Assembly: GCF_000010065.1 (NCBI RefSeq)
Contig: NC_006576.1
Coordinates: 300,001-332,000 of the forward strand
DNA from: Synechococcus elongatus PCC 6301
Lineage (GTDB): Bacteria; Cyanobacteriota; Cyanobacteriia; Synechococcales; Synechococcaceae
Direction: 5' to 3'
DNA length: 32,000 nucleotides
The first letter of the stretch is position 1, and each line of letters starts with the position of its first letter. The position numbers and the translations under genes are program-made. Under the pieces are notes generated by a model. It made no database searches. It was given only the letters and a program-made list of their open reading frames with translations, and was not told where the DNA came from. This document shows, piece by piece, positions 7,343 through 29,027 of this stretch.

Positions 7343-7513
7343 ATGACCTCAACAACCTTGGTCAAATGCGCTTGTGAGCCCTGTCTCTGCAACGTCGATC
7401 CCAGCAAAGCGATCGATCGCAACGGTCTGTACTACTGCAGCGAAGCCTGTGCCGATGGCCACACCGGTGGTAGCAAAGGCTGCGGCCACACCAGCTGTAA
7501 CTGCCACGGCTAA
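7343..7513 (+). CDS. smtA: Class II metallothionein SmtA (56 aa; below the ORF-track size cutoff)
   Basis: My own translation gives MTSTTLVKCACEPCLCNVDPSKAIDRNGLYYCSEACADGHTGGSKGCGHTSCNCHG*. AGGAG lies 8 nt upstream of the ATG. The Cys/His pattern is that of bacterial metallothionein. Confidence 0.97.
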   Translation: MTSTTLVKCACEPCLCNVDPSKAIDRNGLYYCSEACADGHTGGSKGCGHTSCNCHG

Positions 7514-8968: not shown

Positions 8969-9188
8969 ACAAGAAAAACGCTGAGAAGAGCCGCAGAAGC
9001 TCCTGCTCCTAGTGTATGGATTCTGGAGCGGCGGCGGGGTGCGAGTCGGCTTACCAGAGGGGTAATGACTGCAAACCTGAAATTATTTTGTGAATGTAGG
9101 GAAAGAGACAAATCTACATGAATCAATCGTTTTGAATAAAGCAACCGCAATGTGTCTGCGGCTATTCCACGTCTCTACCCAAGCTTTT

Positions 9189-9217
9189 CCCCGCTCAGCG
9201 ATGGCGGGGTTTTTCTT
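9189..9217 (+). terminator. Orphan plus-strand intrinsic terminator with no plus-strand gene upstream
   Basis: CCCCGC (9189..9194), loop tcagcgatg, GCGGGG (9204..9209), then TTTTTCTT. The U-tract exists only for a plus-strand transcript; on the minus strand the stem is followed by AAAAGC. Confidence 0.45.
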
Positions 9218-9268
9218 GGCCAAATCCATCAGCGCGATCGCCTATTTCTCTCCTCTCAGCCCGGAAGT

Positions 9269-9775
9269 TCAGTCTGAATCAGCCGCTTCCATCAATGCTG
9301 TGAGCCGAGGCAATAACTGCTCAAGTTCCTCTTCTTGCCATTCCTCACCGCTCGGTTGATTGGGATGCGGTTGCAATCGCGGTGGACTGAATCCTGCAGC
9401 GGCTTCTACCCCATCCGCCACGGCATACTGAAAGCCCTCGAAGAACCAAGCCTCTTCATCAAAGTCCGTGATATCGATCGCATCGGGATTGGCGATCGCC
9501 GTTTCGTAGGCTGCTTGCCCCCGTGAGATCAACGAAGCGCGAAAGACGCTAAATGCATCATCACTGCAGCCACCCTGCAGCAAATAGGCTGCGCCCCAAA
9601 GCGACCAATCGTAGGCTCGATCCATCAAGGCATCAAAGTGCTGACTAAAAGCGATCGCCTCTTCCGCACTCAGACTCGCAGGCTGTGTTTGCAAGCGATC
9701 GCACTTGGCCTCCATATCGCCATCACTGCGATCGTGCACGTCTTGAATGATGGCCCAGAAATCTTTGAGATCCAT
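9269..9775 (-). CDS. DUF4240-like hypothetical protein
   Basis: MDLKDFWAIIQDV...WGAAYLLQGGCSDDAFSVFRASLISRG resembles the DUF4240 signature. The track start at 9811 is TTG; the ATG at 9775 is preferred. Confidence 0.65.
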   Translation of the reverse strand: MDLKDFWAIIQDVHDRSDGDMEAKCDRLQTQPASLSAEEAIAFSQHFDALMDRAYDWSLWGAAYLLQGGCSDDAFSVFRASLISRGQAAYETAIANPDAIDITDFDEEAWFFEGFQYAVADGVEAAAGFSPPRLQPHPNQPSGEEWQEEELEQLLPRLTALMEAADSD

Positions 9776-9863
9776 TATTTCGCGCCTGAAAGCAGCACCT
9801 AGATTGCCCAAGTATTCCTAGAGCGATCGCATGATAATGAACAGAGCCCTCTAAAAGTTAGCG

Positions 9864-9895
9864 CAAGAAAAACTCCCGCTAATTTAGCAGGAGTT
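9864..9895 (-). terminator. Intrinsic terminator downstream of the RTX-like gene
   Basis: Minus-strand RNA reads AACUCCUGC-UAAAUUA-GCGGGAGUU (9-bp stem with one G.U pair) followed by UUUUCUUG. It lies about 45 nt after the stop at 9941. Confidence 0.6.
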
Positions 9896-9940
9896 CAGGT
9901 AAACCTTTGTGCAAAAAGGCAAAGAGTTGGGGACAATAAA

Positions 9941-11773
9941 TTAACAGCAGCTATATGGCTGAAGCATATCTAATGCTGAACCTCCAATAATTAATGTTTC
10001 TGGAGTTGTTGTGGCAGTAATAACATCACCCATCATTGCATTAGAAGCCTTAAACAGGAGAAGTTCAGTAAAAGAATCACCCATTCCTGGATCTCGCGAT
10101 TCAAAGGTAGTATCAGTTAGGACTCCAGCAATAGCAAAAATATCTGAGATCATTCCAACACTGACAATCACATAATTACCATCACCATCAATGAATGCAG
10201 TACCAACTGAAGATTGAATCGTAAAACCATCAGTTCCTACAATGATAGAGTCGATCGATTCAAAGTCAGTAATGTAATCAAATCCATTCCCGAAGGTGAC
10301 ACTACCATTTTCACCACTTGTCGCTGCGATACCGTCACCTGTTGCCGCAAAGCTAAAAGTGTCTGATCCAAGCCCACCAGTTAAGGTGTCAGCGCCAGTG
10401 CCACCGTTAATCGTATCGCTGTCTGTACCGCCTACGATTGAGTCATTATCATTATTACCTTCAATCAAGTTACTTCCGTTGATTGCGATAATAGTATCAT
10501 TCCCATTACTGCCACTAACTGTGTTGCCAGATCCAGAGATAGTAAAACTAGGATTAATGGCAATCTCGATAGAATCATTACCCATGCCACCATCAATAGT
10601 ATTATTTCCAAATTCAACATTAATGGTGTCACTGCCATCGCCGCCATTAATGGTAGAAGCGGAAAAGCCGAGGATTGAATCATTCCCTAGACCTCCGAGG
10701 AGAGTACTACCAAAACCAATCTCTGTGATGACATCATCATTTTCACCACCATCGATCGAGTTACTGCCAGCGATCGTTCCTTCAATCGTATCGTTACCGC
10801 TCCCACCTAAAATAGTATTACTGTCACCAAAACCTCGAATATTATCGTTACCTGAATCACCGAAGATTGAGTCATTTCCAAGACCACCATCGATCGTGTC
10901 AGCACCATCACCACCTAAAATAGTGTCAGCACCAGCGCCACCATTAATTCTATCGCTGTCTGTACCGCCTACAATTGAGTCATTATTATTATTACCTTCA
11001 ATCAAGTTGTTTCCGCTGATTTCGATAATAGTGTCATTCCCATCACCGCCCAGAATAGTATCGTCTTGATCAGCGCCAGTGAGTCTATCGTCACCTTCAA
11101 ATCCATAGAGCACTGCAGGATTAGTACCTATAGCAGTTAAGGTATCAGCACCGATCGTCCCGATTCCTACAAACAAACCGACACCAACAGAGTCTGTTCC
11201 ATCAAAGACGTTCAGTTCACCGAACAGAGCAGTATCTAGCGCTGTAATCGTTGAGGTTGTTGGCGATCCATTATTAACCGTTCCAGGCATGAGGTTAGTT
11301 GTACCAACCCGTGCGGTTAAAGTGTCACTATCAATATCCTCTGCAGTGAAAGTGATGCTGTTAGCGTCAACAACAGGCCCTGCAGTAATTGTTGGAGCAT
11401 CATTAGTGCCAGCAAGATTAATTGACAATGTCCTCGTCTGAGAGACTGCTCCACGTGAGTCTTTAACAACATAATCAATTGCAATTACTTGAGTATCACC
11501 AAGACCTAAGCTGTCATAGCTAGTATCGTCTTGGTCAAAGGAATAGCTACCATTAGAATTGAGAGTAAATCCTGCTGGAGCTACTTGATTAGGGGCAAGT
11601 AGGAAAGTGATTGGATCACCATTCGGATCACTGGCGATAAGCTGACCGTTAAAAAGACCCGCGTTTTCAGTAAGGTTTTGTGTTTGGCTTTGTGCGATCG
11701 GCTTGCTGTTGAAGTTGAACAGACGTGAAAAGAGCTTGACGAAAGTGAACGCACTGAAATTAAAGGGTGCCAT
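9941..11773 (-). CDS. Large secreted-type calcium-binding repeat protein: N-terminal VCBS/cadherin-like module plus about 20 degenerate RTX (GGxGxDxUx) nonapeptides
   Basis: 610 aa. The N-terminal part reads IASDPNGDPITF...GDTQVIAIDYVVKDSRG...GTNDAPTITAG. The central part reads GGDGNDTI / GGAGADTILGGDGADTIDGGLGNDSIFGDSGNDNI and so on. The C-terminal 150 aa or so is non-repeat (FDYITDFESIDSIIVG...) and ends in SCC. No Sec-type signal peptide is apparent. DNA is about 30-47% G+C in sampled lines, versus about 55-65% in the flanks. An in-frame stop lies 12 nt upstream of the ATG. Confidence 0.85.
   Translation of the reverse strand: MAPFNFSAFTFVKLFSRLFNFNSKPIAQSQTQNLTENAGLFNGQLIASDPNGDPITFLLAPNQVAPAGFTLNSNGSYSFDQDDTSYDSLGLGDTQVIAIDYVVKDSRGAVSQTRTLSINLAGTNDAPTITAGPVVDANSITFTAEDIDSDTLTARVGTTNLMPGTVNNGSPTTSTITALDTALFGELNVFDGTDSVGVGLFVGIGTIGADTLTAIGTNPAVLYGFEGDDRLTGADQDDTILGGDGNDTIIEISGNNLIEGNNNNDSIVGGTDSDRINGGAGADTILGGDGADTIDGGLGNDSIFGDSGNDNIRGFGDSNTILGGSGNDTIEGTIAGSNSIDGGENDDVITEIGFGSTLLGGLGNDSILGFSASTINGGDGSDTINVEFGNNTIDGGMGNDSIEIAINPSFTISGSGNTVSGSNGNDTIIAINGSNLIEGNNDNDSIVGGTDSDTINGGTGADTLTGGLGSDTFSFAATGDGIAATSGENGSVTFGNGFDYITDFESIDSIIVGTDGFTIQSSVGTAFIDGDGNYVIVSVGMISDIFAIAGVLTDTTFESRDPGMGDSFTELLLFKASNAMMGDVITATTTPETLIIGGSALDMLQPYSCC
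10386..10506. repeat. Copy A of a 121-bp intragenic direct repeat (RTX gene)
   Basis: By-eye alignment to 10923..11043 gives about 109/121 identical bases. The offset is 537 bp (179 codons, in frame). It encodes ...NLIEGNNDNDSIVGGTDSDTINGGTGADT... Confidence 0.8.
10923..11043. repeat. Copy B of the 121-bp intragenic direct repeat (RTX gene)
   Basis: Partner of 10386..10506. It encodes ...NLIEGNNNNDSIVGGTDSDRINGGAGADT... Confidence 0.8.
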
Positions 11774-11819
11774 GTCGGTAGAATTCTATGCCGTCGATGG
11801 ATAAACTTGCCAAAGCGAA

Positions 11820-11866
11820 AGTCAAAACTGAAAGTCCGGGTTTTGACTAAATTGTTTGGGATTATA
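11820..11866 (-). promoter_or_regulatory. Candidate -10 box and 5'-leader hairpin upstream of the RTX-like gene
   Basis: A perfect TATAAT on the minus strand (plus-strand ATTATA at 11861..11866) lies about 90 nt upstream of the ATG. A 9-bp perfect hairpin, AGTCAAAAC (11820..11828) / GTTTTGACT (11840..11848), would sit in the leader. No convincing -35 was found. Confidence 0.3.
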
Positions 11867-12075
11867 GCCCAGAATTTTCAAAGATGTTGGTAGTCGAGGC
11901 TTCCACAGATTTCCTGCTAACCACTAATCGAATCATCGTATTGAGGTTATGAAGAGCTAAAACTCGAGCCATGAACTGTACCAAACAATGATTACTCGGT
12001 CAGCAACTCAAGAGCGATCCGCACAAACCAGAGCCAAGAAAAGGTATTAACCTACTTCACCCTTCCCTAGTTTTT

Positions 12076-12107
12076 AAGAATTTTGGTTTCTCCAGAAGAA
12101 AATTCTT
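12076..12107. repeat. Perfect 9-bp inverted repeat in the AT-rich spacer
   Basis: AAGAATTTT (12076..12084), 14-nt spacer, AAAATTCTT (12099..12107). No U-tract in terminator orientation on either strand. Confidence 0.6.
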
Positions 12108-12287
12108 GTGACTCAGGATATCTGCCTTAGTCACTTCACCACAGTCTTCGTCATCTAGGTTTACTGGATTTATCGAGACTATGATTGTTTCCCATCAGAA
12201 AGTTAAGGCATTGACCTTTTCCTAGTGCAATGACTTTGCCAGCCTTGGCACTTGAGCCTGATAACTCAGACTCTAAAGGCATCAGAT

Positions 12288-13499
12288 CTACAGCGATCGC
12301 ACCTCAACGGGAGTTCCCGCCGCGAGGAAGTCCTGACCAGCCGGCAGAATTGCCCAATGGGTTGATTCAACCAGAGACTTGAGCGCTGCAGAGGACTGCT
12401 GAGGATCTACCCAGACCTTGCCCTCGGGAGTCAGCCGCGATCGCCAGAAGCACTGCAGTCCCTCTGGTTTGCGGACAGATTCTGCTAAAGGCAACCAAAG
12501 GGGCGATCGCACTTCGTTGCGGCAGGCCATCAGCAAGGGTTTCAGGAAAAACTCAGCCGTGACGGTTGTGGAAACAGGATTGCCCGGACAAGCCAAGACG
12601 AGGCCTTGGTGCTCCGGTGCGATCGCAAACAACAGCGGCTTTCCGGGTCGAATTGCGACTTTATGAAAAATCGTTTGGCAGCCCAAGCGTTCCAGGGCAG
12701 CGGGCACAAAGTCAGCAACGCCCATCGAGACAGCACCTGTGGTTAGTAATAAGCGCACGCCTTGCGACCAAAATTGCTGAGCGATCGCGGCAAACTGTTC
12801 GGGGTCATCCGGGACATGAGCGATCGCCCGTACCTCACAACCGAGTCGCTGCAACTGCTCAATCAAAAAAGGCTGACTGGAATTGCGGATCTGCCCAAGT
12901 TCCAACGTCGGTTGCGACCAAGGCACCACCTCAGTCCCTGTGGAAATCAAGCCCACAGGCAGTTTCGACCAGACTGGCAGTTCACCCATCCCCACAGCAG
13001 CGGCCAGCATCAATGCCATCGGCGTGAGTCGCTGACCTTTCGCCAGCAGGGGCGAGCCTTGGCGGAGATCTTCGCCCTGCCTTCGAATGAATTGACCGGC
13101 GGGAATCGGTGTCGAAACCGCGATCGCATTCTCTTCTTGCACCACATCCTCGACTTTGACGATCACATCAAAGCCAGCCGGAATTGGCGCACCCGTCATC
13201 ACCGCACAGGCAACGCCTGTGGGATTTGCAAGTAGCGGTGGTTGCTCACCTGCCATCACACGACCAACAACTGGCAACCGCACGGGGCGATCGGGGCTGG
13301 CTGCCGCAACATCCTGACTGCGCAGGGCAAAGCCATCCATGGCAGAGTTGTCCCAGTGCGGTAAGTCGCAGGGCGCGGCCAAATCCTTCGCCAACAGGCG
13401 ATCGCCCGTTTCCAGTAGCGGCACCCTTTCGATTGCCAACGGTAATTGCGCCACTTCAGCCAACAGCAACTCGATCGCTGCCGAATAGGACAAGATCAT
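12288..13499 (-). CDS. moeA: Molybdopterin molybdenumtransferase
   Basis: About 403 aa; MILSYSAAIELLL...PHWDNSAMDGFALRS...MTGAPIPAG...LLLTTGAVSMGVADF is typical of MoeA. The track start at 13523 is GTG; the ATG at 13499 is preferred. It lies divergent from the moa operon. Confidence 0.9.
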   Translation of the reverse strand: MILSYSAAIELLLAEVAQLPLAIERVPLLETGDRLLAKDLAAPCDLPHWDNSAMDGFALRSQDVAAASPDRPVRLPVVGRVMAGEQPPLLANPTGVACAVMTGAPIPAGFDVIVKVEDVVQEENAIAVSTPIPAGQFIRRQGEDLRQGSPLLAKGQRLTPMALMLAAAVGMGELPVWSKLPVGLISTGTEVVPWSQPTLELGQIRNSSQPFLIEQLQRLGCEVRAIAHVPDDPEQFAAIAQQFWSQGVRLLLTTGAVSMGVADFVPAALERLGCQTIFHKVAIRPGKPLLFAIAPEHQGLVLACPGNPVSTTVTAEFFLKPLLMACRNEVRSPLWLPLAESVRKPEGLQCFWRSRLTPEGKVWVDPQQSSAALKSLVESTHWAILPAGQDFLAAGTPVEVRSL

Positions 13500-15343: not shown

Positions 15344-16323
15344 TCGTTCTAGCAGACCATCACGATCGGCAATTTCGCTATCTGCGCCTGTCCTTAACAG
15401 ACGTTTGCAACTTCCGCTGCGGCTACTGCCTGCCCAAGGGGCAACAGCTGGATCCACAACGGCCCGCACTGCTCACCCTCCCAGAAATTCGGCATCTAAT
15501 TGAAGGGTTTGTGGCGCTGGGGATCGAAAAAGTCCGACTGACGGGCGGTGAACCAACGCTGCGATCGGATCTAGTTGATATCGTGCGTGCCGTGGCGGCT
15601 GTACCCGGCATTCGCCGTGTTGCCCTGACCAGCAATGGTTGGAATCTGCGCGATCGCTTGGCCGATCTTCAGGCTGCTGGGCTGACTCAGCTCAATCTCA
15701 GTCTCGATAGTTTGGACGCTGCCCGCTTTCAGGCTATTACTGGCAGCAGCCGTTTTGAAGCCGTGATGGCCGCCCTTGAACAAGCGATCGCGCTGCGCTT
15801 ACCGATCCTCAAGGTCAATGCCGTCCTGCTGAAGACGCTGAATTATCCGCAGCTCTCAGACTTTGTTGAATTTGTGCGCGATCGCCCCATTAGCATCCGT
15901 TTCATTGAGCTGATGCAAACCCTCGATAATCACGACTACTTTCAGCAGGAGTTTCTATCAGGCTCTGTCCTCACCGAACAGTGGCTAGCGCAGGGCTGGC
16001 AACCAATCAAACGCGATCGCACTGCAGGGCCAGCCCAAGAATATTGCCATCCCAATTACCAAGGGAAATTGGGCATAATCGCCCCCTACAGTCCTAACTT
16101 TTGCCAGAACTGCAATCGCCTGCGCGTCACCAGTCGCGGGGCGCTGCGACTCTGCCTGTTTGGCACGGGCGAATTTGACCTCCGCCCTTGGCTCCAACAT
16201 CCCGATCAGCGATCGCAGCTTCTTGAGCAAGTCCAGCAAACCCTCAACTTCAAAACCGCAGGACACCAACTAGCTGAAGCCAACAGCGGCGATACCCGCA
16301 ACCTAGCGACCTATGGCGGCTAG
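15340..16323 (+). CDS. moaA: GTP 3',8-cyclase (radical SAM)
   Basis: [18 protein letters not shown] (CxxxCxxC radical-SAM cluster), [10 protein letters not shown], and a C-terminal [20 protein letters not shown] second-cluster motif. ATGA overlaps the moaE stop. Confidence 0.93.
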
Positions 16324-16338
16324 CAGGTTATTTCTGCC

Positions 16339-16458
16339 TTAGCGGGAATGAGCAGCCAATTGGCGCAGTTTGCGGAGGCGACGTCTGGCCACTTTTGGAG
16401 CTTTAGGACTGTATTTGCGATCAATGAGGATCAAGAGATGGCGATCGATCAGCATCAT
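16339..16458 (-). CDS. Candidate small basic protein (39 aa), below the ORF-track cutoff
   Basis: My translation gives MMLIDRHLLILIDRKYSPKAPKVARRRLRKLRQLAAHSR*. An unusually strong SD (AGGAGGAAGC) lies directly upstream of tandem ATG ATG, 4 and 7 nt from GGAGG. It is convergent with moaA, with its stop 16 nt from the moaA stop. No homolog recognised. Confidence 0.3.
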   Translation of the reverse strand: MMLIDRHLLILIDRKYSPKAPKVARRRLRKLRQLAAHSR

Positions 16459-16589
16459 GGCTTCCTCCTAATCTCAACTCAGGAAAATTTTGCAACTTGA
16501 TTCAACAAACTATCGAGTTTCTGATTACAAGCTGGCCTGCACTTTTATTATGACTCTCTCAAGATATTCAAGAAGATGCCAATGGCAAT

Positions 16590-16649
16590 AATCAATTCAG
16601 CAGAGTAATTGATTTAAGGCAATCTAATTGCAGTTTGGTATTTAGATTG
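16590..16649. repeat. Two adjacent perfect 8-bp inverted repeats in the AT-rich non-coding gap
   Basis: AATCAATT (16590..16597), 9 nt, AATTGATT (16607..16614). Then CAATCTAA (16620..16627), 14 nt, TTAGATTG (16642..16649). The second is followed immediately by a perfect TTGACA at 16646..16651. Confidence 0.6.
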
Positions 16650-16966
16650 ACAATTAAATTTACTTGAGTTTTGCTTTTGCAGTTATCTTGGTTTTTGAGA
16701 TGAGCAAGAGAGGGAATAGTTGCTCGAGTGATCGCTGCTTCTGCCCTCAATTAGCTTGCCACGGGCCGCGACAGACGCTAAATGTCATCAAATCCCTACA
16801 CCCCGCTCGTTGACTTGAGAAAGCAAGCTGTTCAAGGGCTGGGGTACCCTAGTCTCGATTCACAAACCTTTTTTGACGGTGAGTTGTTCTAGTTTTAGGG
16901 CAAAAGTGGTGCTAAAAAACCAGCTGTGGTTCTCACTAATGATGCCAAGAGGAGGCAAATAGAGAA

Positions 16967-17659
16967 ATGCGCTTTCATTTGCGTAGCCGCTCTGGCGAAG
17001 AAATTGTTCTCTATCTGCGGCCTGGTAATCCCTCGGCACCGATTGAGATGGCGGGACCTGCCAATCTCTGTGGCACGGTTTCAACCCTGCTCAAGATGTC
17101 TCTGACTGGTTTGTCGGCCACGTCCGACGACTTACTGAGCCTCTGTGAGTACGATCCAGTCTTTCGCCATTGGTTCCGACTCGACGCTGTTGTCAAAGAT
17201 GGAGATCCAGAGCCAGCCCATCGCGAAGATGCCAAGTTCGCAGCCATGGAGCCGATCTATCCATCCCAAGTGGCGGCCATGCGGCTGGGTGAGCGGCTGA
17301 CTGCAGCGAGTCTGGTGACAAAGGAGCAGCTAGACGAAGCCCTGAAAGGCATTCAAGAGCAGATGCCACACCTACAAATTGGGGAAATTCTCTGCGGGCG
17401 GGGCTACCTCAGTCATAGAACCATGGAGTTTTTCCTCGACCCGATCACCAAGATGAACACGGCTTTTTTGACCCTGCGGCTGGGCGAGCGACTACAAGCA
17501 GCGGGTGTCGTCATCGATCGCGATGTCCATCGCGCCTTGCAATGTCAGCAATGGCTGCCGCTGTCTCTGGGGCGGCTACTGGTGCTGAACGGCGCGGTTT
17601 CGCAGGCCACAGCAGACTTTTTTGGTCGGTTGAGCATTGAGCCGTCCAGCCTGAGCTAA
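16967..17659 (+). CDS. Hypothetical protein with two tandem MshEN/T2SSE_N-like modules (candidate c-di-GMP-binding)
   Basis: GAGGAGG lies 11 nt upstream of the ATG. Residues 106-157 read RLGERLTAASLVTKEQLDEALKGIQ..QIGEILCGRGYLSHRTMEFFL. Residues 171-220 read RLGERLQAAGVVIDRDVHRALQCQ-QWLPL-SLGRLLVLNGAVSQATADFFG. The N-terminal 100 aa has no motif I recognise. Confidence 0.7.
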   Translation: MRFHLRSRSGEEIVLYLRPGNPSAPIEMAGPANLCGTVSTLLKMSLTGLSATSDDLLSLCEYDPVFRHWFRLDAVVKDGDPEPAHREDAKFAAMEPIYPSQVAAMRLGERLTAASLVTKEQLDEALKGIQEQMPHLQIGEILCGRGYLSHRTMEFFLDPITKMNTAFLTLRLGERLQAAGVVIDRDVHRALQCQQWLPLSLGRLLVLNGAVSQATADFFGRLSIEPSSLS

Positions 17660-17664
17660 CCCCC

Positions 17665-18759
17665 ATGAAGAGGCTACAGCTCACACTCACGCGAGGGCAA
17701 TGGCGTCACCTTTGCAAGAGTGCGCTGGGGGTCGTGGTGGCGATCGCGATCGGCAATCAGTTAGATCAGATTCAACCCGACATCTGGAGTTTAAGCGACA
17801 CAACCTGGAGCGCTGTCACCGTCCTCGTTGTCCTGCAGGCCAACTTGGGGGGCTTAGTCAAAGCAAGTACCAGTCGTCTTCAGGGCACCGTCATTGGAGG
17901 AAGCTGCAGCACCTTAGTCGGGTTGCTGCTGGGCTTTTCCCCTTTGAGCGCCGGGCTTTCTGTCTTTCTCTCCTTAGCCTGCTGCTTAACGGCTGGGTTG
18001 AATGATGCTTTGCGGCTAGCGGGTCTAACCAGCTTGATTGTCCAAAGCAGCTTTGCGCTAGGTGTCAGTCAGCCTTGGTTGGTTGGACTGGGACGCTTCA
18101 CCAGCGTCTTAGTGGGGGTCACGATCGCCTTTATCATCTCGCTGCTGCTCTGGCCTCAGCCAGCCTTGCGGCAGCTAGACCAAGAATTGCGATCGCTATT
18201 TGCTGATGCCGCCCAGCTCTACACTGCGTTGAATCTCAACGGCGACCAGGATGAGGCGATCGCAGCGCCGCAGCGCACAGCTGGTATTCAACGGCTCCGC
18301 CAGCATCTCCGACTCAATCGCCAGAGCCTCGATGAGATTCAGCATGAACCTTGGCTCGACCATGACCGTCGTAGCCAGCCCGATCTGCGAGCCCGCGAAG
18401 CCGACACGTTGGTTTTTGCCTTGTATGCCCTGGTGGAGCTCCGGCGCGAAGGTTCCATGCCGCCAGAACTGGAGAGCCCCGATCTCGATTGCTGCATTCA
18501 GCAAGGGCTGCAAAGCCTAGCTCAGAAGCTTTCCCTGCCTGCTGAGATTGGCCAGCAACTCGCTACAGTCCTAAAAGAGCAGGTTGAACATCTCCGCACT
18601 CTACGGCAACGCCGCGCCCTGCGATCGCTTGATGAGGCTGACTTACTGCGCGGCTTGGCATTCCTACAAGAGATCACGCTGATCGGTCGGCTGCTTCTCC
18701 GTTTGGAAGGCCGGCTGGACAATCATCGCTATTGGGATGTGACAGCTGCTAGTGAATGA
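17665..18759 (+). CDS. FUSC / aromatic-acid-exporter-like integral membrane protein
   Basis: 364 aa. The N-terminal half has about 5 hydrophobic helices with a FUSC-like LKSALGVVVAIAIGNQL...TVLVVLQ...RLQGTVIGG pattern. The C-terminal half is a soluble, helical, Leu/Arg/Gln-rich domain. It starts 5 nt after the preceding stop. Confidence 0.7.
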   Translation: MKRLQLTLTRGQWRHLCKSALGVVVAIAIGNQLDQIQPDIWSLSDTTWSAVTVLVVLQANLGGLVKASTSRLQGTVIGGSCSTLVGLLLGFSPLSAGLSVFLSLACCLTAGLNDALRLAGLTSLIVQSSFALGVSQPWLVGLGRFTSVLVGVTIAFIISLLLWPQPALRQLDQELRSLFADAAQLYTALNLNGDQDEAIAAPQRTAGIQRLRQHLRLNRQSLDEIQHEPWLDHDRRSQPDLRAREADTLVFALYALVELRREGSMPPELESPDLDCCIQQGLQSLAQKLSLPAEIGQQLATVLKEQVEHLRTLRQRRALRSLDEADLLRGLAFLQEITLIGRLLLRLEGRLDNHRYWDVTAASE

Positions 18760-25864: not shown

Positions 25865-27262
25865 TCAGTTCAATCCAAGGATGGCGCGGGCGAGCTGGAG
25901 ATAGACAAACACACCAGCGACGTCAACTACCGTAGTGATGAAGGGTGCAGACATCAACGCCGGATCGAGGCCAAGGCGTTTGAAGACCAGGGGTAGGACT
26001 GATCCAGCAGTGGAAGCCAAGATCGAAATCACCAGCAAGCTGAACCCCACCGCGATCGCGACTTGCCAGTTGCGTTCCAGCAGAAACGCCCAAACAGTGA
26101 CCACCGCAGCCAGCATGACTCCCAGTAAGGCTCCAGCAATCAACTCCCGCGACACAATCGTCATCGGGTTCATACTCCGCAGGCGATCGGTGTTCAAGCC
26201 TCGAATCACAACCGTGGAAGACTGCGCCCCCACATTGCCGCCGGTGCCAATCAATAGCGGAATAAAGGCAGCTAAGGCAACCACTTTAGACAGCACATCT
26301 TCTTGACTGCTAATCACTGCACTCGTGCCAGTATTCGTAATCAACAAGACAAATAGCCAAACCACTCGGCGGCGGGCTACCGTCAGCAAATTGGTCTGGA
26401 AGTAGTCATCTTCACCCGACTGCACGCCGCCCAGGGTGTAGATATCTTCGGTTGCTTCCTCTTCCAAAATGTCGATCACATCATCGACGGTGACGATCCC
26501 GACTAGCCGTTCTTCGCGATCAACGACTGGCACTGCCAGCAAGTCATAACGCTGGATCACCCGGGCGACTTCTTCTTGATCTGTGTCGGTATGCACACTG
26601 ATCACATCGCGGGTCATCAGTGCACCAATACTGTCCTCCGGGGGGGCTACCAACAGCTCCCGCAGCGATAAAATTCCAGTCAGCCGACGACTGACATCCG
26701 TAACGTAAAGGGTATAGATCGTTTCGGTGCGGGGCGCCATCAAGCGCACGCGAGCCAGCGCCTGATCACCCGTCATTCCCTCTTTCAAGGCAACGTATTC
26801 CGGGGTCATCAACCGGCCTGCTGTGCCCGTTCCACAGCCGAGCAGCAGTGATGTAATCTCGCGTTCCGCGGGACTGAGTTGCTGCAGTAGCCGCCGGACA
26901 ATTTTGGCAGGGAGCTCATCAAACAAGCGCACGCGATCGTCGGGCGACATCTGCTCGACGAGGTCGAGGACATCCTGACTGCGCAATTCATCAATCAGTG
27001 CTTGCTGCACCGTGCTGTCGAGGTACTCGTACACCTCGATCGCTTCATCTTTGGGTAGAAGACGGAAAGCAAGAGCCTGTAGCGTTTCAGGTAACCCTTC
27101 GATCGCCTCAGCAATGTCGGGATATTGCACCGGCTGGAGCAGGACTTTAGCTCCTTGATAGTCGTTGATTTCCAACAACCCCTGTAGTTGCTGTCGAACG
27201 ATATCGCGAAGCTCTTGGCTGGCGATCGTCCCTTGACCTTGCTCTCGGTTGCTGTCGACCAC
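25865..27262 (-). CDS. mgtE: Magnesium transporter MgtE
   Basis: The MgtE N-domain is followed by a CBS pair (VMTRDVISV..., VPVVDREERLVGIVTVDDVIDIL) and a TM domain with IGTGGNVGAQSSTVVIRGL. The GTG start at 27262 is preceded by GGAGAAGGC. Confidence 0.93.
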   Translation of the reverse strand: MVDSNREQGQGTIASQELRDIVRQQLQGLLEINDYQGAKVLLQPVQYPDIAEAIEGLPETLQALAFRLLPKDEAIEVYEYLDSTVQQALIDELRSQDVLDLVEQMSPDDRVRLFDELPAKIVRRLLQQLSPAEREITSLLLGCGTGTAGRLMTPEYVALKEGMTGDQALARVRLMAPRTETIYTLYVTDVSRRLTGILSLRELLVAPPEDSIGALMTRDVISVHTDTDQEEVARVIQRYDLLAVPVVDREERLVGIVTVDDVIDILEEEATEDIYTLGGVQSGEDDYFQTNLLTVARRRVVWLFVLLITNTGTSAVISSQEDVLSKVVALAAFIPLLIGTGGNVGAQSSTVVIRGLNTDRLRSMNPMTIVSRELIAGALLGVMLAAVVTVWAFLLERNWQVAIAVGFSLLVISILASTAGSVLPLVFKRLGLDPALMSAPFITTVVDVAGVFVYLQLARAILGLN

Positions 27263-27572
27263 GCCTTCTCCCTCGCGGCTCCCGAGAGTCTATCAAGAAT
27301 GCTCCCTATCGGATCAGGACGATCGCGGAAGTTGCGGCAGACAGCGGGGATGACCGCAGGAGGAACAGAATTCTCTCTCATCCTCCTCTCGTCGAGGTTC
27401 TGGCAAATGACTATTGAGAAGCAGAAGCAAGCGTGAGTAAAAGTGCGGAGATTCCCTGAGAGGCACCCCAGAGCCCTCACAGCGCCTTGGGCCGCATCCG
27501 CCGAAGAGCAACGCCCTGGCTTGCTCAGGCCGATGGCTCGGTAGACTCGTAAGCAACGCTGGTTCCTCTGTC

Positions 27573-29027
27573 ATGTCTGCTGTGCATCTCACTGTCACCC
27601 CTCCGGGCCCGATTCGTTTTGGTACTGATGGCTGGCGGGGCGTGATCGCAGCTGATTTCACCTTTGAACGGCTCTTTCGTGCAGCTGGAGCAGCAGCCAA
27701 AGTCTTAGCTAGGACTTACGGTGATAACGGGTCTCGCCGCATTTTGGTCGGCTACGATCGCCGTTTTTTGTCAGAAGAATTTGCCAGCATTACCGCCCAA
27801 GCGATTCAAGCGGTCGGCCTCGAAGCCCAACTCGCCTCGAACTACGCCACAACTCCTGCCCTCAGTTGGGCAGTTCACGAGCAAGCCGCCCTGGGTGCCC
27901 TGGTCATTACGGCTAGCCACAACCCAGGACAATATTCCGGGCTGAAGATTAAAGGCGCTTTTGGCGGCTCAGTGCCCGGCAGTGTCACTGCTGAAGTCGA
28001 GGCGCTTTTAGATCAGGGCTTCACACCAGATCTGCCGGATTCCTCAAGTGCGATCGCCCGCTTCGATCCCTGGCAATCCTATCGGCAGATGCTGCGCCAG
28101 AAGGTTGATCTGGCTGCCATTCAAGCCGCGATCGCCGGCGGGCGACTGAGTGTGTTTGTCGATGTCATGCACGGCGCTGCTGCGGGTGCTTTGGCTCAGA
28201 TCCTAGAGGCGCCAGTCACAGAACTGCGCAGCGATCGCGATCCACTCTTTGGCGGCGGTGCACCGGAACCCTTAGCTGCCAATGTAGTTGGGCTCTGCCA
28301 GCGACTGAGTGATGGCGTCACTACACCTTTGGCAGTCGGCTTTGTCTTTGATGGCGACGGCGATCGCATTGCAGCGGTCGATCGCTCCGGTGAGTTTCTG
28401 AGCTCCCAGGTCTTAATTCCAGTACTGATTGAGCATCTAGCGGCCCGCCGCAGTTGTCCCGGCGAGCTAGTCAAAACCGTCAGTGGCTCGGACTTGATGC
28501 CCAAAGTTGCGGCACTCTTCAACATTCCTGTCACGGAACTTCCGGTTGGCTATAAATACATTGCCGATCGCATGCTGAGCCAAACCGTTCTATTAGGTGG
28601 CGAGGAGTCTGGCGGCATTGGCTACGGCAGTCATATCCCCGAGCGCGATGGTCTACTCTCAGCCCTCTACCTACTGGAAGCGATTGTCCAGAGCGATCGC
28701 AACCTCGGCGATCTCTATGCCGATCTGCAGGCTCGCACACAATTCCAATCGACCTACGATCGCATCGACCTGCCCCTAGCCGATATGAGTGCCCGCGATC
28801 GCGTTTTGCAAGCACTGCAGACCCAGACCCCCCAAGCGATCGCCGGTTTAGAAGTCATTAGTTACCAAACCATCGATGGTTTTAAGTTTCGGCTCAGCGA
28901 TGGTCGCTGGCTAATGGTGCGCTTTAGTGGCACCGAACCCCTGCTGCGGCTCTACTGCGAGGCATCCAGCCCAGAGGCCGTTCAGGAAACCCTCAACTGG
29001 GCTAAGGATTGGGCGCAGCGCTGCTGA
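27573..29027 (+). CDS. Alpha-D-phosphohexomutase family enzyme (phosphoglucomutase/phosphomannomutase)
   Basis: Active-site loop TASHNPGQYSGLKIKG, metal loop FDGDGDR, sugar loop GGEESGG, and C-terminal RFSGTEPLLRLY. Confidence 0.9.
   Translation: MSAVHLTVTPPGPIRFGTDGWRGVIAADFTFERLFRAAGAAAKVLARTYGDNGSRRILVGYDRRFLSEEFASITAQAIQAVGLEAQLASNYATTPALSWAVHEQAALGALVITASHNPGQYSGLKIKGAFGGSVPGSVTAEVEALLDQGFTPDLPDSSSAIARFDPWQSYRQMLRQKVDLAAIQAAIAGGRLSVFVDVMHGAAAGALAQILEAPVTELRSDRDPLFGGGAPEPLAANVVGLCQRLSDGVTTPLAVGFVFDGDGDRIAAVDRSGEFLSSQVLIPVLIEHLAARRSCPGELVKTVSGSDLMPKVAALFNIPVTELPVGYKYIADRMLSQTVLLGGEESGGIGYGSHIPERDGLLSALYLLEAIVQSDRNLGDLYADLQARTQFQSTYDRIDLPLADMSARDRVLQALQTQTPQAIAGLEVISYQTIDGFKFRLSDGRWLMVRFSGTEPLLRLYCEASSPEAVQETLNWAKDWAQRC

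Follow-up and report, generated by a model that had tools for sequence, protein, structure and literature searches.

The 32,000-nucleotide stretch of the Synechococcus elongatus PCC 6301 genome analyzed here (NC_006576.1, positions 300,001 to 332,000; hereafter the window) contains an AT-rich island at 9831-12292. Its single gene, on the minus strand at 9941..11773, encodes a 610-aa protein with a VCBS-type domain and RTX repeats. The protein matches BAD78456.1 of PCC 6301 at every residue; its PCC 7942 counterpart, ABB57317.1 (Synpcc7942_1287), departs from it at 2 positions. We propose, with a probability of about 0.7, that this island is a replacement-type hypervariable locus, namely a fixed slot between moeA and a DUF4240 gene that holds one or two paralogous genes for predicted Ca2+-binding VCBS/RTX exoproteins. 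A promoter-proximal region, a 24-aa leader, and an N-terminal module of ~240 aa are common to the paralogs, after which type A continues into a ~300-aa non-RTX middle and type B into a long RTX array. Lineages differ in their complement: the window (PCC 6301/7942 type) carries type B only, the PCC 11801 type carries type A only, and a close relative carries both, with B frameshifted.

The evidence comes from a comparison of the slot, with occupancy read through exact-protein look-ups, in three S. elongatus lineages: that of the window; L001 (CP168031.1), whose product clusters at 90% identity with the PCC 11801 and IITB7 proteins; and L083 (CP033061.1), which is probably UTEX 3055. The L001 flanks are ~82% identical to those of the window on the moa/moeA side and 78% on the DUF4240 side. 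Between them lies a 763-aa gene. Over its first 240 residues, its product matches the window's protein at 67% identity; further on, the only resemblance between the two lies in a few RTX units toward the end. L083 is much closer in its flanks, at 95.8% (16269-12292) and 98.7% (9764-4624) identity, and on the DUF4240 side the match extends to 9812 when the alignment is relaxed. The slot between these flanks is only 66-75% identical, which delimits a variable cassette at 9812..12292, the stretch over which the high L083 identity is lost; the moeA stop lies at one edge and the region upstream of the DUF4240 gene at the other. Two genes occupy the slot in L083. The first, of type A, encodes 767 aa and is 74% identical to the L001 protein, and the second is the type B counterpart of the window's gene, 61-64% identical to its protein with a different C-terminus and split by a frameshift into ORFs (open reading frames) of 122 and 425 aa. 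The frameshift lies near 7350 within L083 7001-8924, where the reading frame passes from 2 to 3; the copy is a pseudogene in decay unless the frameshift is an assembly error. The type A and type B paralogs have ~130 bp of upstream sequence in common, and neither L001 nor L083 has an empty moeA-DUF4240 site. A published supplement already lists UTEX3055_pg1421-1423 (hypothetical, VCBS repeat, and hemolysin-type Ca-binding proteins) opposite PCC7942_pg1348 (a VCBS repeat protein) in the strain-unique sets of two strains with 98.5% average identity (Adomako et al., PMC9239245 Data Set S3). The strain variability of the slot is thus on record there, although it is not discussed.

Divergence rises abruptly inside the slot. 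Between the window and L083, the rate of synonymous substitution (dS) is 0.039 in the DUF4240 gene and 0.197 in moeA, whereas it exceeds 1.7, and is saturated, in the slot; nonsynonymous divergence (dN) is 0.19-0.27 in the slot against 0.02 in the flanks. Saturation inside, set against 0.04-0.20 in the flanks, implies that the slot alleles are far older than the surrounding genome. Alleles of such age would be the signature of a replacement-type locus, maintained either by exchange through recombination in the flanks or as an old polymorphism. Conserved flanks thus enclose a segment whose divergence is far above their own and whose gene content differs in all three lineages. The first-pass annotation, which was made from the letters of the window alone, had offered a fast-evolving exoprotein cassette as one of its readings, and the strong divergence of the slot relatives bears this out for what is a predicted exoprotein. 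The two flanks themselves show a five-fold dS difference against L083 (12288-13523 in moeA, 9269-9775 in the DUF4240 gene), as would be expected if a recombination tract ended at the slot.

S. elongatus is naturally transformable, and because of this we infer that homologous recombination may swap alleles through the conserved flanks, with recombination from one paralog to the other reshuffling them. Since the paralogs share an upstream region and a leader, recombination between them can remove cassettes or restore them, and this would account for B in one lineage, A in another, and both in a third. Variation at a smaller scale is seen in a Logan contig of a near-identical strain (L002, SRR13787040), which differs from the window at 14 positions in the 4385 bp of 9069-13453. 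Nine of these fall in the island and five in the DUF4240 gene, three in each being protein-changing; the 1166 bp of moeA has none. Small-scale differences among near-identical strains therefore also cluster at the island, with errors in either sequence possible. On the far side of the DUF4240 gene, L001 (8937-14292) carries genes for Usp, a DEAD-box helicase, and others in place of the window's pmbA, smtB-like gene, and dnaG, so the slot also adjoins a synteny break between the two clades.

The protein that fills the slot in the window is modular. HemolysinCabind of Pfam matches it in 7 stretches (E = 1.2e-31), Cadherin_4 matches with E = 3.5e-5 at 24.7 bits, just below the 25.1 cutoff, and the AlphaFold model has a mean predicted local distance difference test score (pLDDT) of 72. 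The conserved N-terminal leader (aa 1-24; 11702..11773, minus strand) carries an FxFxxLFxRLFNFNS motif within the consensus MAxxxxSxFxFxxLFxRLFNFNS[KR]. Across the four gene copies it is better conserved than the Ig-like domain behind it, with invariant columns from F9 to A27. The model gives it a low-confidence helix at aa 8-19 (pLDDT 43-53). It has no match to a known signal or family and is probably not a classical signal peptide; it could be a retention or sorting element.

The leader is followed by a VCBS-type beta-sandwich of immunoglobulin-like (Ig-like) fold (aa 25-125; 11399..11701, minus strand; pLDDT ~88), to which the Cadherin_4 match belongs. A phmmer/HMMER search with residues 1-206 returned 2390 proteins at E <= 1e-3, with best identities of 35-45%. 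Most of these are giant proteins in which a ~100-aa VCBS-type domain is repeated in tandem, up to 47 copies. The VCBS signature (...DGSYxF...D..G......I.V.G.ND.P) is visible in the alignments, the L083 counterpart has a precomputed PF17963 match and a weak PF17803 match, and Foldseek places the domain with cadherins and an Aeromonas RTX-adhesin extender. The cadherin/VCBS-like N-terminal module named in the first-pass annotation is thereby recovered. Its description of the protein as an orphan holds in part: whole-length close relatives occur only in S. elongatus, but the Ig-like domain recurs in the 2390 proteins and the RTX block in thousands more. A second beta-rich segment (aa 126-205; 11159..11398, minus strand) is conserved among the S. 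elongatus copies and is modeled with low confidence (pLDDT 39-61).

The RTX region (aa 206-477; 10343..11158, minus strand) comprises 10 strict GGxGxDxUx nonapeptides and, in line with an earlier count of degenerate units, ~20 with the xDx[ILVF] core. AlphaFold places strands every nine residues over aa 201-477, ~30 strand periods with pLDDT mostly >90. Solved structures retrieved by phmmer and Foldseek include the CyaA RTX domain, type I secretion system (T1SS) lipases, protease C, AlgE6 R-modules, and the Marinomonas antifreeze RTX region. According to the model, the repeats form a parallel beta-roll that is predicted to bind Ca2+. Within the gene, two copies of a 155-nt direct repeat (10359..10513 and 10896-11050), 83% identical, indicate duplication within the RTX array, so that the repeats themselves have also been rearranged. 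About 130 non-repeat residues follow. A post-repeat beta cap (aa 478-540; 10154..10342, minus strand) has strands at 499-538 and a DxIxDF motif, which is common after RTX blocks, appears in the consensus of a 52-sequence alignment, and lies where the protease C and AlgE6 matches extend. The C-terminal tail (aa 541-610; 9944..10153, minus strand), its last 70 residues, is predicted to be disordered (pLDDT 29-45) and is a candidate type I secretion signal. A word-index search returned one match for the N-terminal 206 aa and none for the C-terminal 137 aa, weak negatives given that the parent protein was missed as well. No pore-forming, acylation, or catalytic domain was found in the 610-aa protein, and we set aside RTX cytolysin and enzyme readings for that reason; an S-layer reading was also dropped, its sole support being an old PCC 6301 product name.

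These features suggest a possible route for the protein. Probably lacking a Sec signal, it would be exported C-terminus first by a type I system of the ATP-binding cassette (ABC), membrane fusion protein (MFP), and TolC kind encoded elsewhere in the genome. By analogy with established RTX proteins, it would stay unfolded at low cytoplasmic Ca2+ and form its beta-roll on meeting external Ca2+. More speculatively, the Ig-like domain and leader would emerge last and hold the protein at or near the cell surface, where it might serve as an adhesin or coat the cell. Contact there with phages, grazers, or substrates would then drive its diversity; the domain types point to such a surface location. 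Published predictions for Synpcc7942_1287 are mixed: SignalP and Phobius are negative, SecretomeP is positive, and SSPRED assigns it to Sec (PMC9260433 Table S3). Simkovsky et al. 2022 (PMC9260433) list the gene among those that are non-essential and among those not conserved in cyanobacteria. RNA-seq counts of ~900-1700, compared with ~100 for moeA and ~50 for the DUF4240 gene (PMC9260433), mean that it is transcribed and not silenced. A text search of the literature for its locus tag gave no match.

The composition of the island agrees with the first description of it. The highly iterated palindrome (HIP1) octamer GCGATCGC occurs 102 times in the 32 kb, against ~1.4 expected by chance, with a mean gap of 313 bp that matches the reported spacing of one every few hundred bp. 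The gap from 9823 to 12293, at 2470 bp the largest in the window, runs from the octamer at 9823..9830 on the DUF4240 edge to that at 12293..12300 in the last moeA codons, and only three one-mismatch sites fall within it. Under an exponential model, P is 4e-4 per gap and ~0.04 for any of the 102, so the gap alone is only modestly significant. G+C content is 42.5% over 9831-12292 and 56.8% in the rest of the window. The island is the lowest-G+C 2.46-kb stretch of the window, whose median stretch has 56.7%. G+C at third codon positions (GC3) is 0.319 in the 610-aa ORF compared with 0.541-0.681 in 26 other ORFs, ~9 standard deviations below the mean. The composition is alike across lineages: the three intact slot genes have 40.5-43.1% G+C, GC3 of 0.29-0.34, and no HIP1, so that syntenic relatives exist and their composition is not native. 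The second largest HIP1 gap (26052-28050, 1998 bp) spans mgtE and its upstream region and has normal G+C (0.54-0.58), which means that HIP1 scarcity alone is no mark of foreign DNA here.

A foreign origin can be read from this composition in two ways. In the first, which we consider unlikely, a single acquisition from a low-G+C donor took place in the S. elongatus ancestor, and the genes then descended vertically with fast evolution and slow amelioration and without allele exchange. All lineages indeed have in common the slot with its leader, N-terminal module, and promoter box, as well as the foreign-like composition. Vertical descent, however, would require an extreme local mutation rate to reconcile a flank dS of 0.04-0.20 with saturation in the slot. 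With synonymous sites saturated, moreover, a foreign gene evolving neutrally would be expected to have shifted in the direction of the genome GC3 of ~0.6; the intact copies have not, and a GC3 still at ~0.3 argues against neutral drift.

The second way, a recent strain-specific insertion of a foreign cassette into a core region, corresponds to the horizontal-acquisition reading of the first-pass annotation and now appears distinctly improbable. The strongly atypical G+C and GC3, the absence of HIP1, and the lack of any full-length relative outside S. elongatus in a whole-protein search speak for it. So does a 14-nt direct repeat, CTA[G/C]AGCGATCGCA, which contains HIP1 and brackets the island exactly (9818-9831 and 12288-12301). 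We rejected this repeat as an insertion scar in favor of probable chance, as ~1% of the HIP1 pairs in the window match equally well and the repeat is absent at the L001 and L083 junctions. More decisively, the slot is filled with related AT-rich genes both where the flanks are 82% identical and where they are 96-99% identical. Occupation in every lineage examined means that the island is no recent insertion into the window's strain; the test of presence and absence thus spoke against recency while revealing strong divergence among the occupants. The window holds no integrase, transposase, or tRNA, as had been noted, and with chance repeats and no empty site the island lacks the marks of a mobile genomic island. 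Its AT-rich, HIP1-poor composition is, on these alignments, a long-standing property of the locus and not a sign of recent arrival. The third alternative, that the composition merely reflects a Gly/Asp/Asn/Thr/Ile-rich repeat protein at a locus neither foreign nor special, is the least probable: when the protein is re-encoded in silico with codons as they are normally used in the window, G+C still reaches no more than 51.7%, and only 2 HIP1-compatible tripeptides are present where ~8 are expected for the length (making the absence of HIP1 within the coding sequence less striking than raw density suggests), but the recoded GC3 is 0.575 against the observed 0.319, amino-acid content thus explains ~1/3 of the G+C deficit and codon choice the remainder, the gene uses rare codons (AGA, TTA, and CTT among them), and the non-coding DNA on the two sides of the gene is equally AT-rich (41.6% and 41.9% G+C).

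Several points weigh against the replacement-type locus that we favor. Only three lineages were compared; a MoeA scan of genome contigs gave distant cyanobacteria (<=39% identity) and no S. elongatus, and a metagenome scan with the N-terminal module alignment gave no close allele. The recombination that we invoke would be read from a jump in divergence, and with dS saturated, dN/dS is uninformative on positive selection. Secretion, Ca2+ binding, and surface location of the 610-aa protein are predicted properties; a gene survey of the window found no type I exporter genes, as the first-pass annotation had also noted, and homology searches found neither a recognizable signal nor relatives for the C-terminal 70 aa. 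In day-4 biofilm cells Synpcc7942_1287 drops only modestly (PMC9260433), which gives no strong biofilm link. Finally, the proposal does not by itself account for the persistence of the AT-rich composition. It is conceivable, though we rate the chance as low, that the AT-rich, HIP1-free state is actively maintained and that old two-paralog cassettes are kept, lost, or swapped under phage, grazer, or surface pressure. One case hints in this direction: the only disrupted copy, L083 type B, has the highest GC3 (0.42-0.45 in its pieces, at 43.4-47.5% G+C) and two HIP1 sites (7521 and 8542), which might reflect drift toward the genome norm after relaxed selection.

Both the protein and its locus resemble known systems. 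Like the RTX substrates of T1SS (Bordetella CyaA, serralysin/protease C, AlgE R-modules), the 610-aa protein has GGxGxDxUx tandems, a predicted beta-roll, a DxIxDF cap, a non-repeat C-terminus, and no signal peptide by SignalP or Phobius. Unlike them, it lacks any enzyme, toxin, or acylation module as well as exporter genes in the vicinity, and its C-terminal tail has no detectable relatives. With large RTX adhesins (LapA of Pseudomonas, MpIBP of Marinomonas, and those of Aeromonas and Vibrio) it shares the order of Ig-like extender, RTX beta-roll, and C-terminal signal (a candidate here), Foldseek matches to MpAFP region IV and Aeromonas extender repeats, and an Ig-like domain of the kind that forms long arrays in giant proteins. 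It differs from these adhesins, which are large and have many extenders, in having only 610 aa with one confident and one doubtful Ig-like domain, in a short conserved leader in place of a recognized N-terminal retention module, and in the absence of adjoining LapG/LapD-type or T1SS genes. Replacement-type flexible islands for surface structures are known from O-antigen and S-layer loci and, among marine picocyanobacteria, from surface-protein islands and the swmA/swmB regions. The S. elongatus slot is like these in its fixed position, very divergent content in close strains, low G+C, absence of mobility genes, and probably exposed product, and unlike them in its very small size (one or two genes) and in holding paralogs of one family. 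The gene also fits the criteria, shared with the first-pass annotation, by which Delaye et al. 2011 called putative alien genes in PCC 7942: few HIP1 sites for their length, odd codon usage, and odd G+C (PMC3025956). That study lacked divergent strains for comparison, so that occupancy of the slot in every strain was invisible to it.

The gene has transcription signals of its own. A TATAAT -10 box within GGGCTATAATCCC (11861..11866, minus strand) lies 88 nt upstream of the ATG, and in the alignment GCTATAAT, 88 nt before the ATG, is kept at the equivalent place upstream of all four gene copies; on this conservation it is likely the promoter of the 610-aa gene. The Rockhopper transcript table puts the transcript start at the start codon (PMC9260433). 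This led us to consider a leaderless transcript, driven by a TAGAAT box that precedes the ATG by 9 nt, which we rejected since that box, unlike the TATAAT at 88 nt, is not conserved. At the other end, an intrinsic terminator occupies 9862..9896 on the minus strand, with a 12-bp hairpin (9870-9896) followed by UUUUUCUU as the U-tract (9862-9869). Called from the centroid structure, with z = -2.2 for a 96-nt piece, it agrees with the terminator first placed at 9864..9895. A 49-nt antisense RNA reported at PCC 7942 1310652-1310603 (PMC9260433) corresponds to 10151-10200 on the plus strand of the window, opposite the 3' part of the gene; no convincing promoter for it was found there.

Upstream of the gene, the 514-bp intergenic region (11774..12287; 41.6% G+C) is AT-rich and gene-less as first described, with no ORF >50 aa and no Rfam match; an Rfam search of the island and the whole window likewise gave no match. 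Its first part (11774-11905) is common to the other gene copies, its last part (12185-12287) is common to L083 downstream of moeA, and the ~280 bp in the middle are lineage-specific. Beyond it lie moeA, moaCB, moaE, and moaA, and on the downstream side the DUF4240 gene is followed by pmbA/tldD, an ArsR-type (smtB-like) regulator, dnaG, and pheT. The earlier placement of the island between core genes is loose: moeA is essential, but the DUF4240 gene is listed as non-essential and lacks conservation across cyanobacteria (PMC9260433 Table S3). The exact MoeA product of the window has no database record, probably because of a differing start-codon call. Downstream of moaA, a second AT-rich HIP1-free stretch covers 16324-16966 and the adjoining ORF at 16967-17659, with 500-bp G+C down to 0.426, inside a HIP1 gap of 1531 bp (16209-17740). 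The 230-aa ORF has no Pfam match and no HIP1. Similarity of the window to L001 stops at ~16476, and the stretch at 16324-17659 may be another variable junction.

Both protein and locus fall into known classes, the one as a predicted RTX exoprotein and the other as a proposed replacement-type surface locus, and the persistence of the foreign-looking composition is the one point worth following. It also counsels caution in calling horizontal transfer from G+C and HIP1 scarcity: these signals persist across lineages whose synonymous sites are saturated, and so they do not date an event. S. elongatus PCC 7942 is a main model among cyanobacteria, with legacy strains that are considered domesticated. 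Wild and laboratory lineages differ strongly in their surface-type proteins at few places, of which the moeA-DUF4240 slot is one, and this slot offers a cheap, well-defined target for the role of an RTX exoprotein in adhesion, sedimentation, and phage or grazer resistance of a unicellular freshwater cyanobacterium.

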